The notes beneath the pieces are model-generated. The model ran no database searches. It had not been told where the DNA came from and was given only the letters and a program-made list of their open reading frames with translations. This document shows positions 9,595 through 62,571 of a stretch of DNA of 64,000 nt, piece by piece; within the stretch, counting starts at the first letter, position 1; every line of letters begins with the position of its first letter. A program made the translations under genes and the position numbers. This stretch comes from Octopus vulgaris (taxonomy: Eukaryota): contig OX597824.1 of the NCBI GenBank assembly GCA_951406725.2, positions 24,366,001-24,430,000 on the forward strand, in the 5' to 3' direction.

Positions 9595-10075
9595 CAGTGG
9601 TACTCAACCGGGGAAAGGCGGCGAGCTGGCAGAAACGTTAACACGCCGGGCGAAATGCTTAGCGGCATTTCGTCTGCCGCTACGTTCTGAGTTCAAATTC
9701 CGCCGAGGTCGACTTTGCCTTTCATCCTTTCGGGGTCAATAAATTAAGGACCAGTTACGTACTGGGGTCGATGTAATCGACTTAGTCCGTTTGTCTGTCC
9801 TTGTTTGTCCTCTCCGTGTTTGGCCCCTTGTGGGTATTAAAGAAATAGGTATTTCGTCTGCCGTTAAGTTCTGAGTTCAAATTCCGCCGAGGTCCACTTT
9901 GCCTTTCATCCTTTCGGGGTCGATTAAATAAGTACCAGCTACGCACTAGGGTCGATGTAATCGACTTAATCCGTTTGTCTGTCCTTGTTTGTCCCCTCTG
10001 TGTGTAGCCCGTTGTGGGCTGTAAAGAAATAGGTACTCAACCGGGGTCCGTACCACCCTTGGAGGTCCATTTAAA
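9595..10075 (+). mobile_element. hAT-like MITE end interrupted by a Meta-type SINE
   Basis: CAGTGGTACTCAACCGGGG is a hAT/Charlie-like terminus. The 15 bp direct repeat GGTACTCAACCGGGG at 9599-9613 and 10032-10046 flanks the SINE. Confidence 0.6.
9617..10031 (+). mobile_element. SINE family M (Meta-domain-like) with internally duplicated body
   Basis: Head GGCGGCGAGCTGGCAGAAACG, B-box GAGTTCAAATTCC, central GCCTTTCATCCTTTCGGGGTCGA; ~180 bp body repeated twice; 15 bp TSD. Confidence 0.9.
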
Positions 10076-10122: not shown

Positions 10123-11040
10123 AGGCGTGTGGTTTAGTGGTTAGAGTATTCGGCTCACGATCGTAAAGTCGTGAGTTCGATTCCCAGCGCCGCATTGTGT
10201 TCTTGAGCAAGGCATTTTATTTCACGTTGCTCCAGTCCATTCAGCTGCTAAATATGAGTTGTACCTGTTTTCCAAAGAACATGATAACAAGGTACACTCT
10301 GTGTCACGCTGAGTCTCCCTCAAGACTACGTTAAAGGTACACGTCTCTATGGAATGCTCAGCCACTTTCACGCTAATTTCACGTGCAGGCTGTCATTCCT
10401 GAATCTCCCTGAGTACTACGTTAAGTGTACACGTGTCTGAGGTGTACTCAGCCACCTCCACATTAATTTCCCTAGCAAACCGTTATCCCTGAATTTCCCA
10501 ACTACGTTAAGTGTACACGTGTCTGTGGAGTACTCTGCCACTTGCATATTAATTTCACTTGCACACTGTTATCCCTGAATCCCCCTCAGGACTATGTTAC
10601 GGGTACACGTGTCTGTGGAGTACTCAGCCAGTTGCACAATAATTTCACTAGCAGACCGTTATCCCTGTATCTCCCTCAGAACTACGTTAAGGGTACACGT
10701 GTCTGTGGAGTACTCAGCCGTTTTGACGTTAACCTCACGAGCAGATGACTCCGTTGATCATAAGGTCGTATGTTCGATTCCCGGCGGCGGGTTGTGTCCT
10801 TGAGCAAGACACTTTACTTCACGTTGCTCCAATCCACTCAAATGGCAAAAATGAGATGTACCTGTATTTTAAAGGACCAGCCTAGCACATTCTGAGTCAC
10901 GCTGAATCTCCCTGAAAACTACCTTAAGAGTACGCGTGTCTTTGGAGTGCTCAGCCATTTCAACGTTAATTACACGATCAGGCTATTCTGTTGATTCAAT
11001 CTACTGGATCCCCTCGTCGTCGTAACCGACGGAGTACCAG
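10123..11040 (+). mobile_element. tRNA-derived SINE family D dimer with internal ~90 bp tandem array
   Basis: tRNA head (GAGTTCGATTCCC), GTGTTCTTGAGCAAGGCA; five ~90 bp units 10310-10750; second body from ~10755; end CGTAACCGACGGAGT shared with 33790. Confidence 0.85.
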
Positions 11041-11104: not shown

Positions 11105-11680
11105 TTCCTACTATAGGTACAAGGTCGAAAATTTGGGAGGGGGGGATTACTCGATTACATCGACCCCAGTGTGAAACTAGTACATAATTTATCGATCCCG
11201 AAAGGATGAAAGGCTAAATGGACCTCGGTGGCTTTGAACTCAGAACACGAAGACTGACGAAATACCTATTTCTTTACTACCCACAAGGGGCTAAACACAG
11301 AAGGGACAAACAAGGACAGACAAACGGATTAAGTCAATTATATCGACCCCAGTGCGTAACTGGTACTTATTTAATCGACCCCGAAAGGATGAAAGGCACA
11401 GTCGCCCTCGGCGGAATTTGAACTCAACGTAACGGCAGACGAAATACCTATTTCTTTACTACCCACAAGGGGCTAAACACAGAAGGGACAAACAAGGACA
11501 GACAAACGGATTAAGTCGATTATATCGACCCCAGTGCGTAACTGGTACTTATTTAATCGTCCCCGAAAGGATGAAAGACGAAGTCGACCTCGGCGGAATT
11601 TGAACTCAGAACGTAACGGCAGACGAAATACGGCTACGCATTTCGCCCGGCGTGCTAACGTTTCTGCCAGCTCGCCGCCT
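11105..11680 (-). mobile_element. SINE family M, body triplicated
   Basis: Reverse complement of the family M head ends at 11680; three CCCGAAAGGATGAAAG blocks. Confidence 0.9.
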
Positions 11681-20010: not shown

Positions 20011-20424
20011 TGTGTGTGTGTGTGTGATAGGTCTTGGTGATAACGAGACGGCAAGAGCAACAACCGCAACATCAGCATAAAATAACTGTAAATGAGAACA
20101 GCAGCACCAGCAACAGCAGCAGCAAAAAAGACAGCAGTAACAACATCAGCAACGGTAGCAGCTGCAATATCAACAACAACAACAACAACAATGTAATTAA
20201 TACTTTTAAACAAAAGCAGAAATTAAGAGATAACAGCTGCACTGTAGCAACGGCAATATCTTTACGTTCTGAGTTCAAATTCCACCGAGGTCGACTTTGC
20301 CTTTTATCCTTTCGGGGACGGTGAATTAAGTACCAGAGAAGCACTGGAGTTGGTGTAATCGGCAAGTCCCCTCCCACCAAATTTAGCAGAAATGATTGTT
20401 ATTATTACTATTATTTTTATTATT

Positions 20425-20960
20425 GAGTGACAGAGCAATGCATGCCATCAAAGTGACACCGGGGTAAAATATACGAATCCCAGTATACCCATCATGACTA
20501 CTCGTCTGATAAGGGTACACCCGGCACATGCATCACAACCTTATGTGCGCGACATGGTGATCTTGTATCAAGATAAACAGCGCGTGACCTTGCAGGTGGG
20601 GCCCAGTTAGAATTTTCTTCATGCCAAGAAGCCTATCCCGCTCAAAAGGTCCCTGAATAAGGATTAATCATGTTGAACGAAACACCCATGTTTCCAGAGG
20701 TGAATTATTCAAACCTCAACACATGGTTATGATGCTCCTCCACTACTTCTGCTCATGATCAGAGATGCAGATATCGTCAGCCACTAAGAGACATGCTCAA
20801 ATGGTTAAGGTCAAATAACTGACAAGCAAATCTGTGGTATTGAGCAGAATATTTACTGTAGCCCATCTTTTATACCAAGACAAAACAACGTACATGATAA
20901 CACTTCCAATCAGTTTAGATCAGAAACCATGAGAGCCACTGCTTGGTACTGCATCAGGGC

Positions 20961-20962
<2 letters not shown>
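20425..20962. mobile_element. ~540 bp non-coding interspersed element (family C) flanked by (ATT)n
   Basis: Reverse-complement copy at 43722-44263 and partial copy at 52571-52947; no ORF, tRNA head or TIR seen. Confidence 0.85.
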
Positions 20963-21024
<62 letters not shown>

Positions 21025-27814: not shown

Positions 27815-28130
27815 TCTCTTTTACTCTTTTACTTGTTTCAGTCATATGACTGTGGCCATGCTGGAGCACCGCCTTTAGTCGAGCAAGTCGACCCCAGGAC
27901 TTATTCTTTGTAAGCCTAGTACTTATTCTATCGTTCTCTTTTACTTGTTTCAGTAATATGACTGTGGCCATGCTGGAGCACCGCCTTTAGTCGAGCAAAT
28001 CGATCCCAGGATTTATTCTTTGTAAGCCTAGTACTTATTCTATCGGTCTCTTTTGCCAAACCACTAAGTTACAGGGACGTAAATACACCAGCATCAATTG
28101 TCAAGCGATGTTGGGGGGACAAATACAAAC
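27815..28130 (-). mobile_element. SINE family A 3' half with ~113 bp tail duplicated
   Basis: CTCTTTTACTTGTTTCAGT...CTTATTCTATCG occurs twice in tandem. Confidence 0.9.
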
Positions 28131-28268: not shown

Positions 28269-28682
28269 AGGCGGCGAGCTGGCAGAAACGTTAGCATGCC
28301 GGGCGAAAGGCGTAGCCGTATTTCGTTTGCCATTACGGTGTGAGTTCAAATTTCGCCGAGGTCGACTTCGCCTTTCATCCCTTCGGGGTCGATAAATAAA
28401 GTATCAATTGCGCACTGGGGTCGATGTAATCGACTTGATCCCTTTGTCTGTCCTTGTTTGTCCCCTCTGTGTTTAGCCCCTTGTGGGTAATAAAGAAATA
28501 GGTAATTCACCTGCCGTTACGTTTTGAGTTCAAATTCCGCCGAGGTCGACTTCGCCTTTCATCCTTTCGGGAACGATGAATTAAGTACCAGTTGTGCACT
28601 GGAGTCGATATAATCGACTTGATCCCTTTGTCTGTCCTTGCTTGTCCCCTCTATGTTTAGCCCCTTGTGGGTAATAAAGAAA
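28269..28682 (+). mobile_element. SINE family M with duplicated body
   Basis: Same structure as 9617-10031. Confidence 0.9.
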
Positions 28683-28768
28683 TATATATATATATGTGTG
28701 TGTGCGTGTGTGTGTGTGTACTATCATACACAATACATAAGCATTTGTATATATTTGCATGTGTGCGT

Positions 28769-35758: not shown

Positions 35759-36405
35759 TATGTAAGTGTACTAGTAAGTCATGAAGACGTGTAGTATAGG
35801 GTAAAACGGTAGTTTCTGCTTCTAAGGTATCCATCTTTGTTCGCCGTAACCATGTCAACCGCTATGCAAAATTTAAAAAAACAAAAAAGGGAGAGAGAAA
35901 AATGATTAAGGGTGCGGGAGACATAAATCAACAGAAGGGTTGGGGAGAAGTATGGGTAGAAGCATGGGGGATAAGGGTAGCGGGTGAGATGCACGGCGAG
36001 GAGGGGCGGTGTTCATTGAATGCTGAACAGTAGCCCCCCCCCCATCGCACGCAACTTCCTCATGTAAACTAGGACTTGTTGAAATTCCGCCCGTTCTTCC
36101 TCACTTTCCTTATATGTAGCTTATAGGCAGCCCCATTTAAGGGAAAACCGTGCTTTAAAAATGGATTGATACCACGTGGTGGGGAACCTAATTTTTAAAT
36201 AGAAATTTGTGTAGGGTTTGGTGGGGTGCGCGGGGTTGTAGTTACGCCCGAAGACTCGTAGGAATTTCTCAATTAGAATTCATACGAGTATGAAGAGTTG
36301 CAGTGGTTGGCGTAGAGCTTCGAGAGCCGAAGAGTAAAGAATGCAGTTTAAAGGAATATATATACATGCTTATCATCGTCATCTATTGAGTCCCTTCTCT
36401 CTTTT

Positions 36406-36437
<32 letters not shown>

Positions 36438-36718
36438 ACTTTCTTCCTCTCCCTTTCTCCCTCTCTTTCTCTCTCGCTCATTCTCTCTCACTCGCTTTCT
36501 CCCTCTCTCGCTCATTTTCTCTCTCTCTCGCTCTCCTTTCTCTTTCTCTTTCTCACTCACTCTCTCTCTCTTTCTTTCTCTCTCTATCTCTTTTTCTCAC
36601 TCTCTCTCATTCGCTCTCTCTCTCTCTCTTTCTCTCTGTCCATCTCTATTTCTCATTCTCTCTTTCTTTCTCACTCTTTCTCGCTCTCTCTAACTCTCTC
36701 TCATTCGCGCTCTCTACT

Positions 36719-36806
<88 letters not shown>

Positions 36807-37115
36807 TATAAAATTATATGTGTGTGTGTATGTTTACGTCTGTATATGTATCTGTGTGTGTGTGCGTGTGTGTGTGTGTGTGTCTGTGTATGTGTTTGTG
36901 TGTGTGTGTGTGTGTGTGTATAGCTAAATAATATTCGAATAAATTTCTTGTAGAATGCTATGCAAAGTCCGTCCACAGTTATTGGCTACCTGATGTCAAT
37001 ATACAGTGGAAATGCTCCTGTTACCGGACATATATCAGGAATCCCATTGTAACAGTAAGAGCTTATATAAATAGATGAATGACAGAAAATGGACCGAACT
37101 TCATCCTTTATTTAA

Positions 37116-37223
37116 AATCACTACAATTGTTTCGACACATTATTATACCTGTATTACACTGGTGAGATGTTGTGTAATCATTATCAAACACAGAAGGTGT
37201 AAAATGCACCTCCTCAAGTGATT
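37116..37223 (-). ncRNA. Type I hammerhead ribozyme variant (C3U)
   Basis: Minus strand: stem I AATCAC/GTGATT; core TTGAGGA; stem II GGTGCAT/ATGTGTC with long insert; GAAA-C-AATT-G-TA. Confidence 0.65.
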
Positions 37224-37456
37224 GTTTAAATAAGTCTTTCATTTAATCATAACCAAAGTGATGTGGCATTTTCAGCTGTATACAGACAAAGCTAAACCCA
37301 CGAAGTACAATTATAAGCAAAATATACAAAATACAGAAATAGAAAAATTAGACAAAAAATGGACCGACCATGTAGACTATAAATTACACACATTCATATG
37401 TATGAATGTGTGTGTGTGTGTGTGTGTGTGCGTGTGTGCATGTGTGTGTGAGAGAG

Positions 37457-37524
<68 letters not shown>

Positions 37525-37624
37525 GGTGTGAAATTGTTATAATACTTTGGATGATAATTTCGTTTGTTCCGTCTGTTGTGCTTCTATATAAGTTTTAAAC
37601 ATATACGTAAATATATATGGCGTT

Positions 37625-37940
37625 TAGTCAACTAATCCAGAAACAGGCTTGTCCTCGGGTGATCTCATATGGATGTGATCTTTCGTTGTTTTTCCCTTAT
37701 ACCTATGTGAGTTATTTCTGAGTATGCATTGTCTGGGAGACTTTTCTTGCAGTAGAAGAAATAGCCAAATTTTTGGCTGCTATTTCTAAAAAGCTCGGTA
37801 TGTGGTAAAGTAAATTATTTTACTTTACCCTATTTTTATAAAGTAATATTTCAAATATACCGTAAATGGTCGTTTTACATATCGAACACTGCTCGGTCGA
37901 ATTAATGAATAATTAATTAATTTTACCCTATGTTATTGAC

Positions 37941-37945
<5 letters not shown>
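37625..37945 (+). mobile_element. Diverged solo relative of the 557 bp HHR repeat unit
   Basis: Colinear with the reverse complement of the unit: ACTAATCCAGAAAC..GTC, ATACCTATGTGAGTT, GCTGCTATTTCTAA, GTATGTGGTAAAGTAA, AATAATTAATTAATTTTACCCT then (TA)n. Confidence 0.8.
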
Positions 37946-38011
<66 letters not shown>

Positions 38012-38096
38012 ATATATGTGTGTGTGTGTGTAGTAGAGTATTGTAGTACTGTAGTTTGCTTGAAGCATTGTGTGTTGTTTGTAAAGAATTATAATG

Positions 38097-38234
38097 TTTT
38101 GAATGGTACAACAATGCACTATAATACAGACAATGGGGTATATACCTGTTGTAATATCAGACTATGGATGACTAAATTACAACAGGTATATAGCCCATTG
38201 TCTGTATTATAGTGCATTGTTGTACCATTCAAAA
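38097..38234. repeat. Hairpin with 59 bp arms and 20 nt loop; third copy at ~38815-38925
   Basis: 38097-38155 is the reverse complement of 38176-38234 with one mismatch. Confidence 0.95.
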
Positions 38235-38256
38235 TTTTATTGTTTATATATATATA

Positions 38257-38317
<61 letters not shown>

Positions 38318-38342
38318 ATAATAATAATAATAATAATAATAA

Positions 38343-38404
<62 letters not shown>

Positions 38405-38640
38405 TGACAACAAAAGAATGAACGAGGCCTTGGTATTATGTACTTAGAGGAATTTATCTATCTATTTATCTCGCGAATAACCAGCCGAAATTGCAATGAT
38501 AATCTGGAACTCGACTGAGGATAGAAAACTCCGAATGACCCGTCCTTGTTTTCTTTGTATCATCTGTCTGGATGTTGTGTTGTGCCTTTTTTTATCACCT
38601 AACCGTCTAGATGTTTTGCGTTCTTGTCACATTTTTGTAT

Positions 38641-38688
<48 letters not shown>

Positions 38689-38990
38689 AAGGACGTGGCG
38701 CCTATGGAGGCAAGGTAGGTGGTGTCTACCTTGAATAAGATTGATCGACAGCAGCATTTTACTTTTATGGCAAACTATGCTCTTAGTTCAATAAAATTAT
38801 GAAGGTTTCACTGAAAGTATTGTAGTTCGCTTGAAGCATTGCGTATTGTTTGTAAAGAATAAAAAAGTTTTGAATGGTACAACAATGCACTATAATACAG
38901 ACAATGGGCTATATACCTGTTGTTACACTGATTATTATGCATGAAATGCAAAGTTTTCCATTTCTTTGTAGATTAGGTAAGCATAATTCG

Positions 38991-39212
38991 CACGTGCCTT
39001 TCAATCTCAGTCTTTAAGATACGCATTGTTCTGCTGTATTACACGTGCTGTGTACACTCCTACGACACCGTTTTTTTTTTTCACGTGCTATAAAGCGAGA
39101 AGTAAATCTACCTTCAACTCAGTCGCACGCCTGCGTTTCGCCTGTTTTTTTCTGTCTTTTACTACATAAAGGTCACCAAGTGCCTACCCTGAGTAAATAT
39201 TGATGGCACGTG
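38991..39212. promoter_or_regulatory. Cluster of four CACGTG E-boxes with an adjacent TATAAA
   Basis: CACGTG at 38991, 39042, 39082 and 39207; TATAAA at 39089. Confidence 0.4.
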
Positions 39213-39220
39213 CCTGATAC

Positions 39221-39345
<125 letters not shown>

Positions 39346-39388
39346 TATATTCGTTTATTCTTTTAGTCATTTGATTGCGGCCATGTTG

Positions 39389-39422
<34 letters not shown>

Positions 39423-39786
39423 ATAAATACACATACACACAAGAAACTTGCACGTAGTTTCCGTCAATTTAATTGACTCCCGAGGCTTTAGTCGGCCCTG
39501 GGTTATAGTAAAAGACACTTGCCCATGCTGCCACGCAGGAGAACTGAACCAGAAACATCATGGTTACAAAGTGAGCTCCGTTACCACACACCCATGTCTG
39601 CTCCTTGCCAAACAACATACATACATACATACATACATACATACAAATTGACTTTAAACTGTGTTTCGTAATACTGATAATCCCTTAATTCTTTAATCGG
39701 ATAATCCGTTCTACCTCAGTAAAATTTAAACTGAAACTGTTACGTGAAATATTATTACAATCTCATCAACTGCTGTGTGTCAGTAT

Positions 39787-39893
<107 letters not shown>

Positions 39894-39922
39894 GATATAT
39901 ATGTATGTGTGCATGTGCGTGT

Positions 39923-39972
<50 letters not shown>

Positions 39973-40317
39973 ACATATACATATACATACATACATACAT
40001 ACAAAGTTTTAAGGTTGTATTTGCAACAGTGAGTAGTCTTTGCAGTGGAAACACGTATAGAACATTATAATAAATTTTATGAATGTACAAATCTCCATAC
40101 TCTTTATTATTATTATCAATATTAATATACACTCCAGACAATTCTTACTGTCCAGCGAAGAGAACACGGAATTACCCATCGACAAGAATTCGCGGAGTGA
40201 TTAACAACTAAATGTAGTCACAGACGTTAAATACTGATCGTTGAGGTTAGCCGTTAACGGGAACTTAACTGAGAGCGAGTACGTTATCTACCCGGATAAT
40301 ATATCCTTCCAAACTCC

Positions 40318-40376
<59 letters not shown>

Positions 40377-40423
40377 TATATATACATTTATAGCCATATA
40401 TATATATATACATAATTGATCAA

Positions 40424-40455
<32 letters not shown>

Positions 40456-40472
40456 CACTTATACATATACAT

Positions 40473-40510
<38 letters not shown>

Positions 40511-40513
40511 TTA

Positions 40514-40559
<46 letters not shown>

Positions 40560-40582
40560 TCAAAACTTATATATATATATCA

Positions 40583-40654
<72 letters not shown>

Positions 40655-40901
40655 CAACAATTGAGGGTAAAATTAATTAATTATTAATATACATATAAAG
40701 GGACCATAGGCGAATATATATTATATATGCTTATAAAATAAATACTTTGCCACATACTGAACTCATTAGAAATAGCAGCTAAAGAAATTTCTTCAGCTAT
40801 TTCTAATACTTAAAGAAGATCTCTCTCAGATAGTGTTTGCCTAAACCAACTCACAAAGGTATGGGGGAAAAAACATTAAAAAATCAAGTGCAAAGGTTAT
40901 T

Positions 40902-40953
40902 TGAGAACGTACGTTTCTAGATTAGTCAATTCGACATTTCTTTCGTCAGCTCA
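40902..40953 (-). ncRNA. Minimal type I hammerhead ribozyme, unit 1
   Basis: TGAG-CTGACGA-stem II-GAAA-C-GTAC-G-TT-CTCA; palindromic loop 3; A.A at the base of stem II and a GUU triplet are non-optimal. Confidence 0.7.
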
Positions 40954-41458
40954 GAATTCCTTGAATCGGATTTGGGAACACTGAAAGTTGGGAGCATACC
41001 CTTTCGGCTTCTTATCACTTCTAGAATTCTGCTCGAACTAAAAGTGCTATCAAATTCGAATATGCAAGCGAAGAATTTCTGCTCTCCCCTTTCCACCAGC
41101 GTGGGTTAAAATTGACAAACACCATGTATTAACGGTGAAAACCGCAGCATTTAACAGAGAAAGATGAATTATAATTTCAACAATTGAGGGTAAAATTAAT
41201 TAATTATTAATCAATTTCACCAAGTATTCAGTATGTAAAGGGACCATTTTAGGCGAATTCAAAATATTACATTATATATAAGGGCTTAGTAAAATAAATT
41301 ACTTTGCCACATACTGAACTCATTAGAAATAGCAGCTAAAGAAATTTCTTCAGCTATTTCTAATACTTAAAGAAGATCTCTCTCAGATAGTGTTTGCCTA
41401 AACCAACTCACAAAGGTATGGGGGAAAAAACATTAAAAAATCAAGTGCAAAGGTTATT

Positions 41459-41510
41459 TGAGAACGTACGTTTCTAGATTAGTCAATTCGACATTTCTTT
41501 CGTCAGCTCA
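41459..41510 (-). ncRNA. Minimal type I hammerhead ribozyme, unit 2
   Basis: Identical to the unit 1 motif, 557 bp away. Confidence 0.7.
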
Positions 41511-42016
41511 GAATTCCTTGAATCGGATTTGGGAACACTGAAAGTTGGGAGCATACCCTTTCGGCTTCTTATCACTTCTAGAATTCTGCTCGAACTAAAA
41601 GTGCTATCAAATCCGAATATGCAAGCGAAGAATTTCTGCTCTCCCCTTTCCACCAGCGTGGGTTAAAATTGACAAACACCATGTATTAACGGTGAAAACC
41701 GCAGCATTTAACAGAGAAGAGATGAATTATAATTTCAACAATTGAGGGTAAAATTAATTAATTATTAATCAATTTCACCAAGTATTCAGTATGTAAAGGG
41801 ACCATTTTAGGCGAATTCAAAATATTACATTATATATAAGGGCTTAGTAAAATAAATTACTTTGCCACATACTGAACTCATTAGAAATAGCAGCTAAAGA
41901 AATTTCTTCAGCTATTTCTAATACTTAAAGAAGATCTCTCTCAGATAGTGTTTGCCTAAACCAACTCACAAAGGTATGGGGGAAAAAACATTAAAAAATC
42001 AAGTGCAAAGGTTATT

Positions 42017-42068
42017 TGAGAACGTACGTTTCTAGATTAGTCAATTCGACATTTCTTTCGTCAGCTCA
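42017..42068 (-). ncRNA. Minimal type I hammerhead ribozyme, unit 3
   Basis: Identical motif, 558 bp from unit 2. Confidence 0.7.
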
Positions 42069-42664
42069 GAATTCCTTGAATCGGATTTGGGAACACTGAA
42101 AGTTGGGAGCATACCCTTTCGGCTTCTTATCACTTCTAGAATTCTGCTCGAACTAAAAGTGCTACCAAATTCGAATATGCAAGCGAAGAATTTCTGCTCT
42201 CCCCTTTCCACCAGCGTGGGTTAAAATTGACAAACACCATGTATTAACGGTGAAAACCGCAGCATTTAACAGAGAAAGATGAAATAATATCTGAGAGAGA
42301 TCTTCTTTAAGTATTAGAAATAGCTGAAGAAATTTCTTTAGCTGCTATTTCTAATGAGTTCAGTATGTGGCAAAGTAATTTATTTTAAGGAGAGGCCGAG
42401 AGAAGGAGAGAGAAAATAGAACTTGTTGCAAAGGACCCTTAAGCCTAACATTATCTAGCCTTTGAAGGGGTTCACTTTCCAGTTCTAGCTGGTGGCCTTT
42501 TTTAATTCAGTGGACTAAAGGAAAATGAAATTAACTGCCTTGCTCAAGAACACAAATGCATCAGACTATTCCAGAATCGAACTCGCAACATTGAACAACG
42601 TGGCCGATCAATCTGCTCGACCACGGGCATACACGTGCATGCACACCACATGTTCACACACATT

Positions 42665-42708
<44 letters not shown>

Positions 42709-43024
42709 TACACACACATACAAATTGACACATATATGCATATACATGCAAATATATGTGCACTTTACAAGCATACAGATAGCTACACACCCACACATAC
42801 ATACGCGCATATATAAATATATATAAATCTACACACACACACACATACACATACATATACACACATACATACATGTATATGTACATGTCTGTGTGTGTGT
42901 GTGTGCGTGTGTGCGTGTGTGTGTGCATGTGTGTGTAATGAGCTCCTGTTGTTATTAGGTTAGCAGTGTACAGCTGTTCACTATCTCTACTACAATGACT
43001 GCAGTTAATATAAAATACCATTAT

Positions 43025-43177
<153 letters not shown>

Positions 43178-43667
43178 TATGTCAAGCAATTCCAGTGGCA
43201 AGCGCTGTTGTTCTTGGGCTACATATTTCATATTTTACAACAGTGTGCGCAGCTGTTACAAGCAGCACTACTCTGGCAACTATATATAATCCGAGAATGC
43301 TTTAAATGCAACTCAATGGTCTTGTCTTAATTCACTTACAGTCACTAAAGTAGTTAATGTGAACCACTAAGTATTGACCCCTGACTTATTGCACTCTCTT
43401 TTTTTCCTCCTTTCATCCATATTCTGTCCTTCACCACCTTGAAGATCTCGGTCTCTAATATCGCTCCTAGTTTTTTTTTTTTTTTTTTTTTTTCTTCAAC
43501 CCCTCAACTGCTGAGGATTTCTCTGGGAATCCCTTCGAAGCTCTTGTTTTTGTTCTCAATTTGAATTTATTCAAGTTCCAAACGAACATTAACTATGTCG
43601 ATCGATGTCGGTGGTATGAGAGGACCCACGAAAGTAATTGGCGCAGTCCCTTCTTCCAGATTAAGTC

Positions 43668-43721
<54 letters not shown>

Positions 43722-43725
<4 letters not shown>

Positions 43726-44263
43726 TGCCCTGATGCAGTACCAGGCAGTGGCTCTCATGGCTTCTGATCTTAACTGATTGGAAGTGTTATCATGTACATT
43801 GTTTTGTCTTGGTATAAAAGATGGGCTACAACAAATATTCTGCTCAATACCACAGATTTGCTTGTCAGTTGTTTGACCTTAACCAGTTGACCATGTCCCT
43901 TAGTGGCTGACGATATGTGCATCTCTGATCATGAGCAGAAGTAGTGGGGGAGCATCATAACCATGTGTTGAGGTTTGAATAATTCACCTCTGGAAACATG
44001 GGTGTTTCGTTCAACATGCTTAATCCTTATTCAGGGACCTTTTGAGCGGGATGGGCTACTCGACCAGAAGAAAATTCTAACTGGGCCCCACCTGCAAGGT
44101 CACGCGCTGTTTATCTTAATACAAGATCACCATGTCGCGCACATAAGGTTGTGATGCATGTGCCTGGTGTACCTTTATCAGACGGGTAGTCATGATGGGT
44201 ATATTGGGCTTCGTATATTTTACCCCAGTGTCACTTTGATGGCATGCACTGCTCCCTCACTCA
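43722..44263. mobile_element. Family C element flanked by (AAT)n
   Basis: Reverse complement of 20425-20962. Confidence 0.85.
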
Positions 44264-44284
44264 ATAATAATAATAATAATAATA

Positions 44285-44368
<84 letters not shown>

Positions 44369-48165: not shown

Positions 48166-48239
48166 TTATTCTTTTCTGACGAAGAGCGTAGGCTCGAAAC
48201 GTAAAAGACTTTTCCATTTCCTCAGCGTCAAACAAATAC
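48166..48239 (+). ncRNA. Hammerhead ribozyme motif in a Penelope-like fragment
   Basis: TATTCTTTT-CTGACGA-A-GAGC-GTAG-GCTC-GAAACGT...GCGTC-AAACAAATA. A decayed relative lies at ~61715-61780 on minus. Confidence 0.65.
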
Positions 48240-48337
48240 ACTTGCTTATTGTTCCTACAGCGTCAAACAAATACACTTGCTTATTGTTCCTACACCTGTA
48301 GTATCAGCGGCGAAACTTCGTTATTTATATACATTTG

Positions 48338-48383
<46 letters not shown>

Positions 48384-61645: not shown

Positions 61646-62487
61646 TTATATATATATAGGGAGAATTCACAAAAAAAAAGACGAAGACAGGTGGTGTAGA
61701 CAACAATCAGTTGTATTAGTTTAACGCTCGGGAAGTGAAAAAGTCTTTAACATTTCGAGCCTACGCTCTTCTACTGAAAGGAACACAATAAGAAACAAGG
61801 AGAGAAAATAAAGAATGTGTAGTGGCTAGCGACTTAACATGGCGAATGCCGGAGAGAGGGGTCACACAGGAGGACTGGGAAGAAGGGGAGATAATAAAGT
61901 AGTTGTGATTCCAAAACGAAGGTACGCGAGCGTGTGTATAAGAGAGCATGTATGTGCGTGTGGAAGAGGGTTAGTGACCTTGACGTATGCGTGTTTGTAT
62001 GTGTAGGTGTGTGGATGATGGTGTGGGGCTGGGAAGTGGTCAGTGCTATCGTGTGCGTGGTGGAGTGATGTGATGTGGTGTTGTGTGGTATGGTGTGGTG
62101 GTGTATGGTGTGGTGGTATGTGGTGTGATGTGATGGTGTTGGGATGTGGGGGAGGCGAGAATGAGGAAAGCAAGGGTGGGGTGTGGGTTAGGCTGGGGTG
62201 GGGTATGTAGGTTAGGCTAAGGGTGGAGGTAGAGGTGGGGTATGTGGGAGTGGGTTAAGGGATGGAGTCCGGTTGTCATGGTAACAAGCTGCTAATGCCA
62301 CGCTGTCTGTTGATTGGCTAAAATTACCCAAATTTCCCCAATAATTCCAAATAACAGATTCTTTAATTTACAAGATAAAGTAATTAGTTGATCGTAATCA
62401 AAATTCAGAGTTGCATCGAAGCACCAAAACTGAAAGCAATCTGTGCAAAATTAAAGGGGGTTCATTTTGTGAGTGAAATTTACTCGA

Positions 62488-62559
62488 GGTCTTATGGTGT
62501 AATGGTTAGCACTCTGGACTTTGAATCCAGCGATCTGAGTTCAAATCTCGGTGTGACCT
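62488..62559 (+). tRNA. trnQ-TTG: tRNA-Gln(TTG), possibly a pseudogene
   Basis: GGTCTTATGGTGTAATGGTTAGCACTCTGGACTTTGAATCCAGCGATCTGAGTTCAAATCTCGGTGTGACCT; complete cloverleaf, A and B boxes intact; U5.U68 mismatch in the acceptor stem. Confidence 0.88.
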
Positions 62560-62571
62560 AACAATATTACA

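Follow-up and report, generated by a model that had tools for sequence, protein, structure and literature searches.

A three-copy array of a non-coding hammerhead unit with Penelope-type ends, likely an animal non-LTR retrozyme, in Octopus vulgaris DNA

The window, a stretch of 64,000 nucleotides from Octopus vulgaris, is animal-type DNA with many microsatellites and short repeats, and contains three direct repeats that are read on the minus strand from 40651 to about 42288 and are followed by an inverted piece. The array comprises three copies of a non-coding hammerhead unit and is likely a non-autonomous Penelope-like parasite, in other words an animal non-LTR retrozyme, which likely inserted as one concatemer; this reading is given a probability of roughly 0.6. 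The first-pass annotation had proposed either a retrozyme-like "circRNA replicon", a label which overreaches the evidence, or a Penelope pLTR array. The two are not a real either/or, since animal retrozymes are argued to derive from pLTRs (Li, Clavereau and Pollet 2026, 10.64898/2026.07.22.740005). The three units, delimited by self-comparison, are listed from the 5'-most:

41732..42283 (to 42288), minus strand: unit 1, about 552-557 bp
41174..41731, minus strand: unit 2, 558 bp, 34% GC
40651..41173, minus strand: unit 3, 523 bp, with deletions in its final ~110 nt

The spacing from ribozyme to ribozyme within the array is 558 and 557 bp. Units 1 and 2 differ by two substitutions and two gap columns, and unit 3 differs from either by two substitutions and 40 gap columns, with the gaps clustered in its last ~110 nt beside a (TA)n tract. 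With the unit 3 tail set aside the three units are about 99.6% alike. The earlier description of three near-identical tandem units is correct, but a length of 557-558 bp does not apply to unit 3, which has only 523 bp. The deletions in its tail are absent from the 12 of 16 indels listed in public contigs of the family, and are either private, reflecting real slippage, or a consensus error next to the (TA)n microsatellite. It is extremely improbable that the array is an assembly artefact in which a single unit was triplicated in the consensus: the unit 3 tail and the (TA)n look noisy and no listed contig spans the locus, but each unit carries its own substitution, and the head-to-tail junction between units, which reads TTATAA, is present in a diverged public contig of another organism label. 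The array is almost exactly 3.00 units long and its phase is set by the 3' end, not by the cleavage site. The 5' end of unit 1 coincides with the lap boundary, no more than 0-5 nt from the site that corresponds to the array 3' end, which under random truncation would be a coincidence of about 1%.

One unit has a GC content of 34% and a longest open frame of 62 codons across its six frames, and no Pfam match was obtained for the frames scanned, in agreement with its earlier description as non-coding. Among the selected open reading frames (ORFs) of the window, 219 of 223 were scanned and have no Pfam match to a reverse transcriptase (RT) or GIY-YIG domain, the four left out being repeats of unit frames that had already been scanned; two weak matches below the cut-off are neither RT nor GIY-YIG. 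The array is not an autonomous Penelope-like element, and the lack of RT and GIY-YIG domains in the scanned window ORFs would imply that a Penelope-type protein acts in trans. That these ORFs include no autonomous partner counts against the preferred reading. Transcription of the whole unit by RNA polymerase III was considered and rejected on inspection, as it is at odds with the several runs of at least four T on the ribozyme strand.

Each unit carries a type I hammerhead motif, identified by a descriptor that comprises both core boxes, the closing pair of helix III, UH and four Watson-Crick pairs in helix I:

42017..42068, minus strand: type I hammerhead motif 1, predicted cut after GUU at 42021
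41459..41510, minus strand: type I hammerhead motif 2, predicted cut after 41463
40902..40953, minus strand: type I hammerhead motif 3, predicted cut after 40906

All of them read UGAG-CUGACGA-25 nt-GAAA-CGUACG-UU-CUCA, with core starts at 42064, 41506 and 40949, and are composed of a helix I of 4 bp, a helix II of 3+3 bp with an A10.1/A11.1 mismatch and a helix III of 1 bp with a palindromic GUAC. The predicted cuts delimit monomers of 558 and 557 nt. The descriptor matches 3/3 array units and only 4 of 20,000 dinucleotide shuffles of the unit (0 of 20,000 when a self-complementary helix III is included), while shuffles of the whole window (n=200) give a mean of 0.005 matches against four observed, three of which are the array copies. 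The hammerhead in each unit, its stem I UGAG/CUCA and the GUAC palindrome had been noted in the first-pass annotation, and the descriptor recovers the motif above the shuffle rate. The same descriptor finds no ribozyme on the opposite strand of the unit. No Rfam hammerhead model matches positions 36000-44000 at E up to 1 or one unit at E up to 10; the Rfam matches obtained are microRNA-type models on microsatellites or hairpins, all far under their gathering scores.

Helix III has one pair in the monomer and six in the dimer. Dimer-cleaving variants have reportedly been described by Lunse et al. For an RNA that spans two motifs, the double-hammerhead fold is predicted to lie 7.0 kcal/mol above the free minimum as compared to 18.7 kcal/mol for two single folds, so that the folding model favours the earlier notion of a type I ribozyme whose palindromic helix III suits it to act as a dimer. 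The free minimum places the palindromes in a longer non-catalytic duplex which buries core bases, and the motif on its own is predicted to be no more stable than shuffled sequence (z +1.0 and -0.25). Both features, together with the GUU triplet and the A/A in place of a G10.1-C11.1 pair, count against ribozyme activity. The G10.1-C11.1 pair is termed highly conserved in the available part of PMC4209133. Of the features of the minimal pLTR hammerhead, the array has the palindromic 15.2-16.2/loop 3 (CGUACG) and, with 4 bp, a helix I within the range of 4-5 bp; it has neither the G10.1-C11.1 pair nor the extra nucleotide after A9.

A diverged member of the family also lies in the window, and differs from the array in an internal hairpin:

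37626-37939, plus strand: diverged, 5'-truncated family member (E 8e-30; 75% identity over 248 columns)
41321..41365, minus strand: strong internal hairpin, one per unit and one in the inverted piece (z -4.2 for 41316-41372)

The diverged copy extends from the 3' half of the ribozyme, GAAA-CAGGCUUG-UC, through to the same 3' end as the array, which is again followed by (TA)n, and the CUGANGA half of the core is missing. Its helix III, CAGGCUUG, consists of other letters and is still self-complementary, its triplet is GUC and an A precedes GAAA as in the array. Its hairpin is shorter and has different letters (z -1.7). A loose end at 41329 in the public run X17 resembles this version of the hairpin, and the resemblance suggests that the copy at 37.7 kb represents a separate subfamily present in other samples.

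The unit is found, whole or in part, in at least 20 public sequencing runs from 10 studies with four organism labels. One lap (41030-41586) was aligned at 85% likeness to the contigs of four of these runs, X1, X3, X10 and X17. X1 is possibly the source sample and X3 has a different organism label and study; that X10 and X17 derive from RNA is a guess, and they are therefore uninformative on expression. Matching contigs number 9162 in X1, 2360 in X3 and 136 and 60 in the other two runs, with 30/30 bins of the unit covered in each, and the summed depth, which is not a copy number, reaches up to 2.8 million in X1. In X1, 6923 of the 9162 contigs are less than 99% alike. The family is very abundant, diverse and non-coding. 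Exact-pattern scans of metagenome and viral contigs gave no match, and such collections are not expected to contain animal repeats. The literature consulted holds no account of this family in octopus or cephalopods; Repbase, Dfam and preprint supplements lay outside its scope and may contain it.

The extra A before GAAA (position 41475) had been taken for a family trait. It is indeed common to the array and the diverged copy but is the minority allele in all four runs, where U accounts for 742,364 of a depth of 1,052,462 in X1 (71%), 500,505 of 816,892 in X3 (61%), 812 of 964 in X10 (84%) and 140 of 144 in X17 (97%). With U at this position, helix II regains a closing pair, A10.1-U11.1. The extra A is hence a polymorphism which breaks this closing pair in the array, not a fixed trait, and judging by the A10.1/A11.1 mismatch the ribozymes of the array are probably weaker than those of the family majority. 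This natural A/U polymorphism at 11.1 offers a ready test of the role of ribozyme activity in the spread of the family. CUGANGA and GAAA are hit by a single one of the variants listed (40 of 60), a C7 to U change, and position 7 is free.

The public contigs also bear on how the three units came to lie in tandem. Record 29 of X3, which has eight other letters, extends 32 and 45 letters to the two sides of the head-to-tail junction, and this implies that the junction exists in another copy. Under a rule of 31 letters this is the only one of 32 listed contig pieces to bridge the junction, and several more cross it with shorter overhangs. Joints that "go back 557" were discarded as evidence for tandems or circles, as they merely close the arbitrary cut within the unit; in contigs, a circle would read the same as the tandem in the genome. 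A distinctly improbable alternative is that one or two units were inserted and that the trimer arose later by local unequal crossover or slippage, as in the birth of a minisatellite. Such a route has been proposed for retrozyme arrays (10.64898/2026.07.22.740005) and accounts for the near-identity of the units and the whole-unit steps, but with the junction also found in the diverged contig of X3 it would be inherited rather than made here, and the 100% identity of the inverted piece to the units leaves little time for later events; a step from two to three units remains compatible with these data.

According to a further alternative, which is very improbable, the units are 5'-truncated end pieces, consisting of the 3' UTR and pLTR, of an autonomous Penelope-like element. 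In favour of this, the 3' half of the unit has the greatest summed depth and the part upstream of the ribozyme the least, and the diverged copy at 37626-37939 is itself a 5'-truncated 3' half. Three truncations at one position are unlikely, though, and the segment just beyond the junction (41068-41105) has a summed depth equal to that of the ribozyme bins. Only two of the 24 loose ends listed (228 in all) are (TA)n, and the others that are long enough to be judged resemble, by eye, a diverged continuation of the unit. The long helices of the predicted RNA, which pair both halves of the unit, also speak against this alternative.

The monomer from cut to cut is predicted to fold at -146.4 kcal/mol as a linear RNA (z -4.5, 0/100 shuffles as low) and at -140.7 kcal/mol as a circle (z -5.1, 0/60 shuffles as low). 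Several successive helices of this fold bring nt 14-87, counted from the cut, together with nt 298-400, a segment just beyond the DNA junction at about nt 289-293. As this rod can form on the circle and on the linear unit alike, the fold does not discriminate between them. When the 30 variants with a frequency of at least 5% are placed on the predicted fold, 16 are unpaired, eight keep a pair and six break one (null 9.8, P 0.066, not significant). Of the 18 variants that reach at least 25% in X1 or X3, a threshold picked after the data had been inspected, nine are unpaired, eight keep the pair and one breaks it (null 5.1, P 0.011). Five of the eight pair-keeping variants turn a G-U into a Watson-Crick pair, and the sole breaking variant has a partner change: 41309 and 41236 change from A-U to G-C with frequencies of 0.43 and 0.39 in X1. 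The modelled fold and these variants, which are unphased and derived from summed contigs, lend moderate support to selection on the RNA structure of the unit.

The ends of the array are defined by the following features:

40321..40650, no strand: imperfect (TA)n tract, likely target site, adjoined by the 3' end of the element
42288..42387, plus strand: inverted internal copy, exact, 100 bp, equal to 41290-41389 and 41848-41947
41189..41221, minus strand: predicted 15-bp hairpin (predicted fold) which ends about 15 nt before the 3' end

The 3' end meets the (TA)n at 40651/40650, as had been stated for the transcript, and the inverted internal copy, previously estimated at ~100 bp, has 100% identity to both internal segments over exactly 100 bp. 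The combination of tandem copies, an inverted 5' copy and a (TA)n 3' end corresponds to the pattern given for Penelope insertions in the available part of PMC8557442, and the Penelope-type ends noted earlier hold in this sense. The outer end of the inverted piece stops 116 nt short of the unit 3' end and joins a flank other than (TA)n via TA; in contrast to a textbook inverted pLTR the piece is devoid of the unit 3' end, which counts against the preferred reading. No target-site duplication was found at the array, the longest shared word being 5 nt. The same 3' end before (TA)n occurs in the array, in the 75% copy and in loose ends at 41170 in public contigs (23 contigs of X1 and one of X17 among the loose ends listed). 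The position in the array is equivalent to 41174, giving two 3' ends 4 nt apart among the 24 of 228 loose ends listed. This fixed 3' end is located 289 nt downstream of the predicted cut site, and the hairpin at 41189..41221 is, from its predicted fold and position, a candidate start signal for the reverse transcriptase. The stretches joined at the inner inversion junction (42270-42300) are partners of one helix in the rod predicted for the RNA (nt 79-87 and 298-306), and template structure may have guided this join.

For the insertion of the array as one concatemer, it is proposed that a read-through RNA would fold such that the adjacent palindromic helices III pair as a double hammerhead, which is predicted to release monomers of 557-558 nt that a host ligase could close. 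A trans-acting Penelope-type RT/GIY-YIG protein would nick AT-rich DNA where the (TA)n begins, reverse transcription would start internally at the fixed 3' site of the unit, 289 nt past the cut, and three laps would be copied from one circular or multimeric template, with the other target strand priming the inverted piece of 100 bp. Insertions of endonuclease-bearing Penelope-like elements are described with tandems, a 5' inverted copy and a bias towards microsatellites (PMC8557442, available part). A Penelope-like protein has been found to nick AT-rich DNA on both strands and extend both, and to initiate cDNA synthesis within the RNA, at a stem-loop located 3' of the hammerhead (PMC11167929). 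Two published results count against the preferred reading: mutants of the ribozyme in the anole element are unimpaired in insertion in vitro (PMC11167929), and only one of nine retrozyme dimers tested was able to cleave (10.64898/2026.07.22.740005).

The units are far more alike (~99.6%) than the family at large, which points to one source template. A 5' end at the lap boundary can be explained by an RT that runs on a circle and stalls at its own start site, and equally by a linear unit-length RNA that is used three times. If the inverted piece is read as internal priming of the second strand, a template that offers its position upstream of unit 1 has to be a circle or a multimer of at least four units; loss of the outer end by a subsequent deletion would also account for this position. 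Internal priming of the second strand is known for L1 inversions. In the literature consulted twin priming is not linked to Neptune elements.

An unlikely alternative is a non-autonomous Penelope derivative that arises from linear unit-length RNA, in which the RT re-primes on the same RNA or inserts into its own AT-rich junction, and where the ribozyme is a passenger inherited from the pLTR and no circle is involved. The length of ~3.00 units phased at the 3' end rather than at the cleavage site is in line with this, as are the TTATAA junction, given that AT-rich DNA, the pLTR of the element itself among it, is nicked by the anole protein (PMC11167929), the atypical hammerhead motif of the array, and the description of tandems formed by insertion beside existing copies in the available part of PMC6765202. 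In the anole system the ribozyme is moreover dispensable in vitro and reads never began at the cut site (PMC11167929). Separate insertions or RNA jumps would however be expected to sample a family in which most contigs are 1-15% diverged, and the units are ~99.6% alike. A core that is invariant bar position 7 among the variants listed and a helix III that is self-complementary even in the 75% copy also suggest a maintained ribozyme and not a passenger.

A more specific version of the concatemer reading is tentative, with the odds rather against it: the locus would be a fossil of rolling-circle reverse transcription, in which a Penelope-type RT started at a fixed site on a 557-nt circle made by the ribozyme, ran for exactly three laps and stopped at its own start, with the second strand primed 116 nt behind. 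The family would then represent a very abundant, undescribed and likely cephalopod lineage of retrozymes, selected for a viroid-like rod in which adjacent hammerheads are held side by side. If true, this would tie retrozyme circles directly to the Penelope machinery, a connection so far only proposed by the two source papers.

At the sequence level the array family likely works like an animal non-LTR retrozyme. According to the 2026 preprint, a retrozyme comprises at least two tandem units in direct succession, and a full type I hammerhead is required in every one of them; the array has three of three. Self-cleavage as a monomer or dimer, abundant monomer RNA in linear and circular form and the canonical tertiary contacts between loops 1 and 2 also belong to the definition. 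Retrozymes are further expected to be non-coding with a GC content below 45-50% and no LTR-type arrangement, as holds for the unit with its 34% GC, and to form multi-copy families, as seen in the 9162 and 2360 contigs of X1 and X3 and the 75% copy in the window. Animal non-LTR retrozymes are described, in the available parts of the sources, as non-coding low-GC tandems with one type I hammerhead per unit in which trimers are common, and their mobilisation by Penelope-like elements has been proposed, as it is here. In the axolotl HHR_Amex1, too, helix III consists of one pair and carries a palindromic tetraloop, and HHR_Amex2 has a U-U mismatch at the base of helix II that provides a precedent for the A/A of the array (PMC7229834, available part). 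The monomer had been called long for animal retrozymes. It does exceed the 150-450 bp of animal non-LTR retrozyme units (Cervera and de la Pena 2020, PMC7229834, available part) but falls within the 51-972 bp of the 2026 preprint, where most families have seven repeats or fewer. Differences from the retrozymes covered in the available parts of these sources are a helix I of 4 bp in place of the canonical 6 and the lack of a target-site duplication. The 5' inversion, the (TA)n 3' ends and the lap-exact arrays are not described for retrozymes in the available parts of PMC7229834 or the preprint.

Endonuclease-bearing Penelope-like elements, which are Neptune-type by their microsatellite bias, resemble the array in their tandem and inverted 5' copies and (TA)n-associated 3' end (PMC8557442, available part). 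Likewise pLTRs have a fixed internal 3' end downstream of the hammerhead (PMC8557442, PMC4209133 and PMC11167929, as far as available), and their hammerheads have a short helix I, a long helix II and a palindromic helix III (PMC4209133, available part). Unlike Penelope-like elements as described in these available portions, the array has no ORF, consists of full laps of one short unit rather than partial tandems, has an internal inverted piece and no G10.1-C11.1 pair, and the 30-40-bp tail that stems from two RT start sites is not seen among the loose ends listed. In newt satellite 2 and avocado sunblotch viroid an unstable helix III is rescued by pairing of tandem ribozymes (PMC6155905, available part), as is predicted for the array, which by contrast has no opposite-strand ribozyme by the descriptor and no sign of RNA-to-RNA replication.

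The type of element is itself not new, and the 2026 preprint has already published both the range of unit sizes and a Penelope origin. Of note are the lap number of exactly three, with a phase set by the 3' priming site and not by the cleavage site, and the location of the inversion, which is compatible with a template that is circular or multimeric. The movement of animal retrozymes is debated between tandem cDNA made from circles, as put forward in one paper, and local amplification of Penelope ends, as put forward in the 2026 preprint. Counts of lap number and phase across the genome, in a young and abundant family with both junctions intact, could separate these models.

The window contains further hammerheads and repeats. 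A second, unrelated minimal type I hammerhead (48167-48340, plus strand, core 48176) has no helix III and a GUA triplet, and about 165 nt downstream its 3' flank terminates in TTTGAAC next to (TA)n, which resembles another truncated Penelope-type end; a relative with a decayed core is 80% alike (61695-61783, minus strand). A third minimal type I hammerhead (32056-32013, minus strand, core 32052) has an extra A after A9, a helix II closed by G-C and a GUU triplet, and is single copy within the window. The hammerhead-linked 3' ends before (TA)n read TTGAAAT (40651), TTGAC (37940) and TTGAAC (48341). A TGAA/TGAC-type end pattern is matched by only three of 154 TA runs on both strands, and the 37940 end is not among them; from their sequence, a shared RT start preference of the three ends is possible.

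Inverted arms of 65 nt, 20 nt apart and 95% complementary, lie at 38091-38240, with a further copy of the arm 600 nt away (38858-38923), and are foldback or MITE-like. A dispersed repeat of 574 nt occurs at 20391-20964 and, in opposite orientation and 94% alike, at 43723-44296, and is bounded by (AAT)n/(ATT)n. Short tandem arrays with units of 182-184, 90/176 and 112 bp are found at 9667-10035, 11154-11631, 28328-28684, 10309-10719 and 27824-28054; several belong to one dispersed SINE-like family, and no hammerhead core matched in them. ARAGORN identifies a tRNA-Gln(TTG) at 62487-62560 on the plus strand, which is either a gene or a tRNA-derived repeat.
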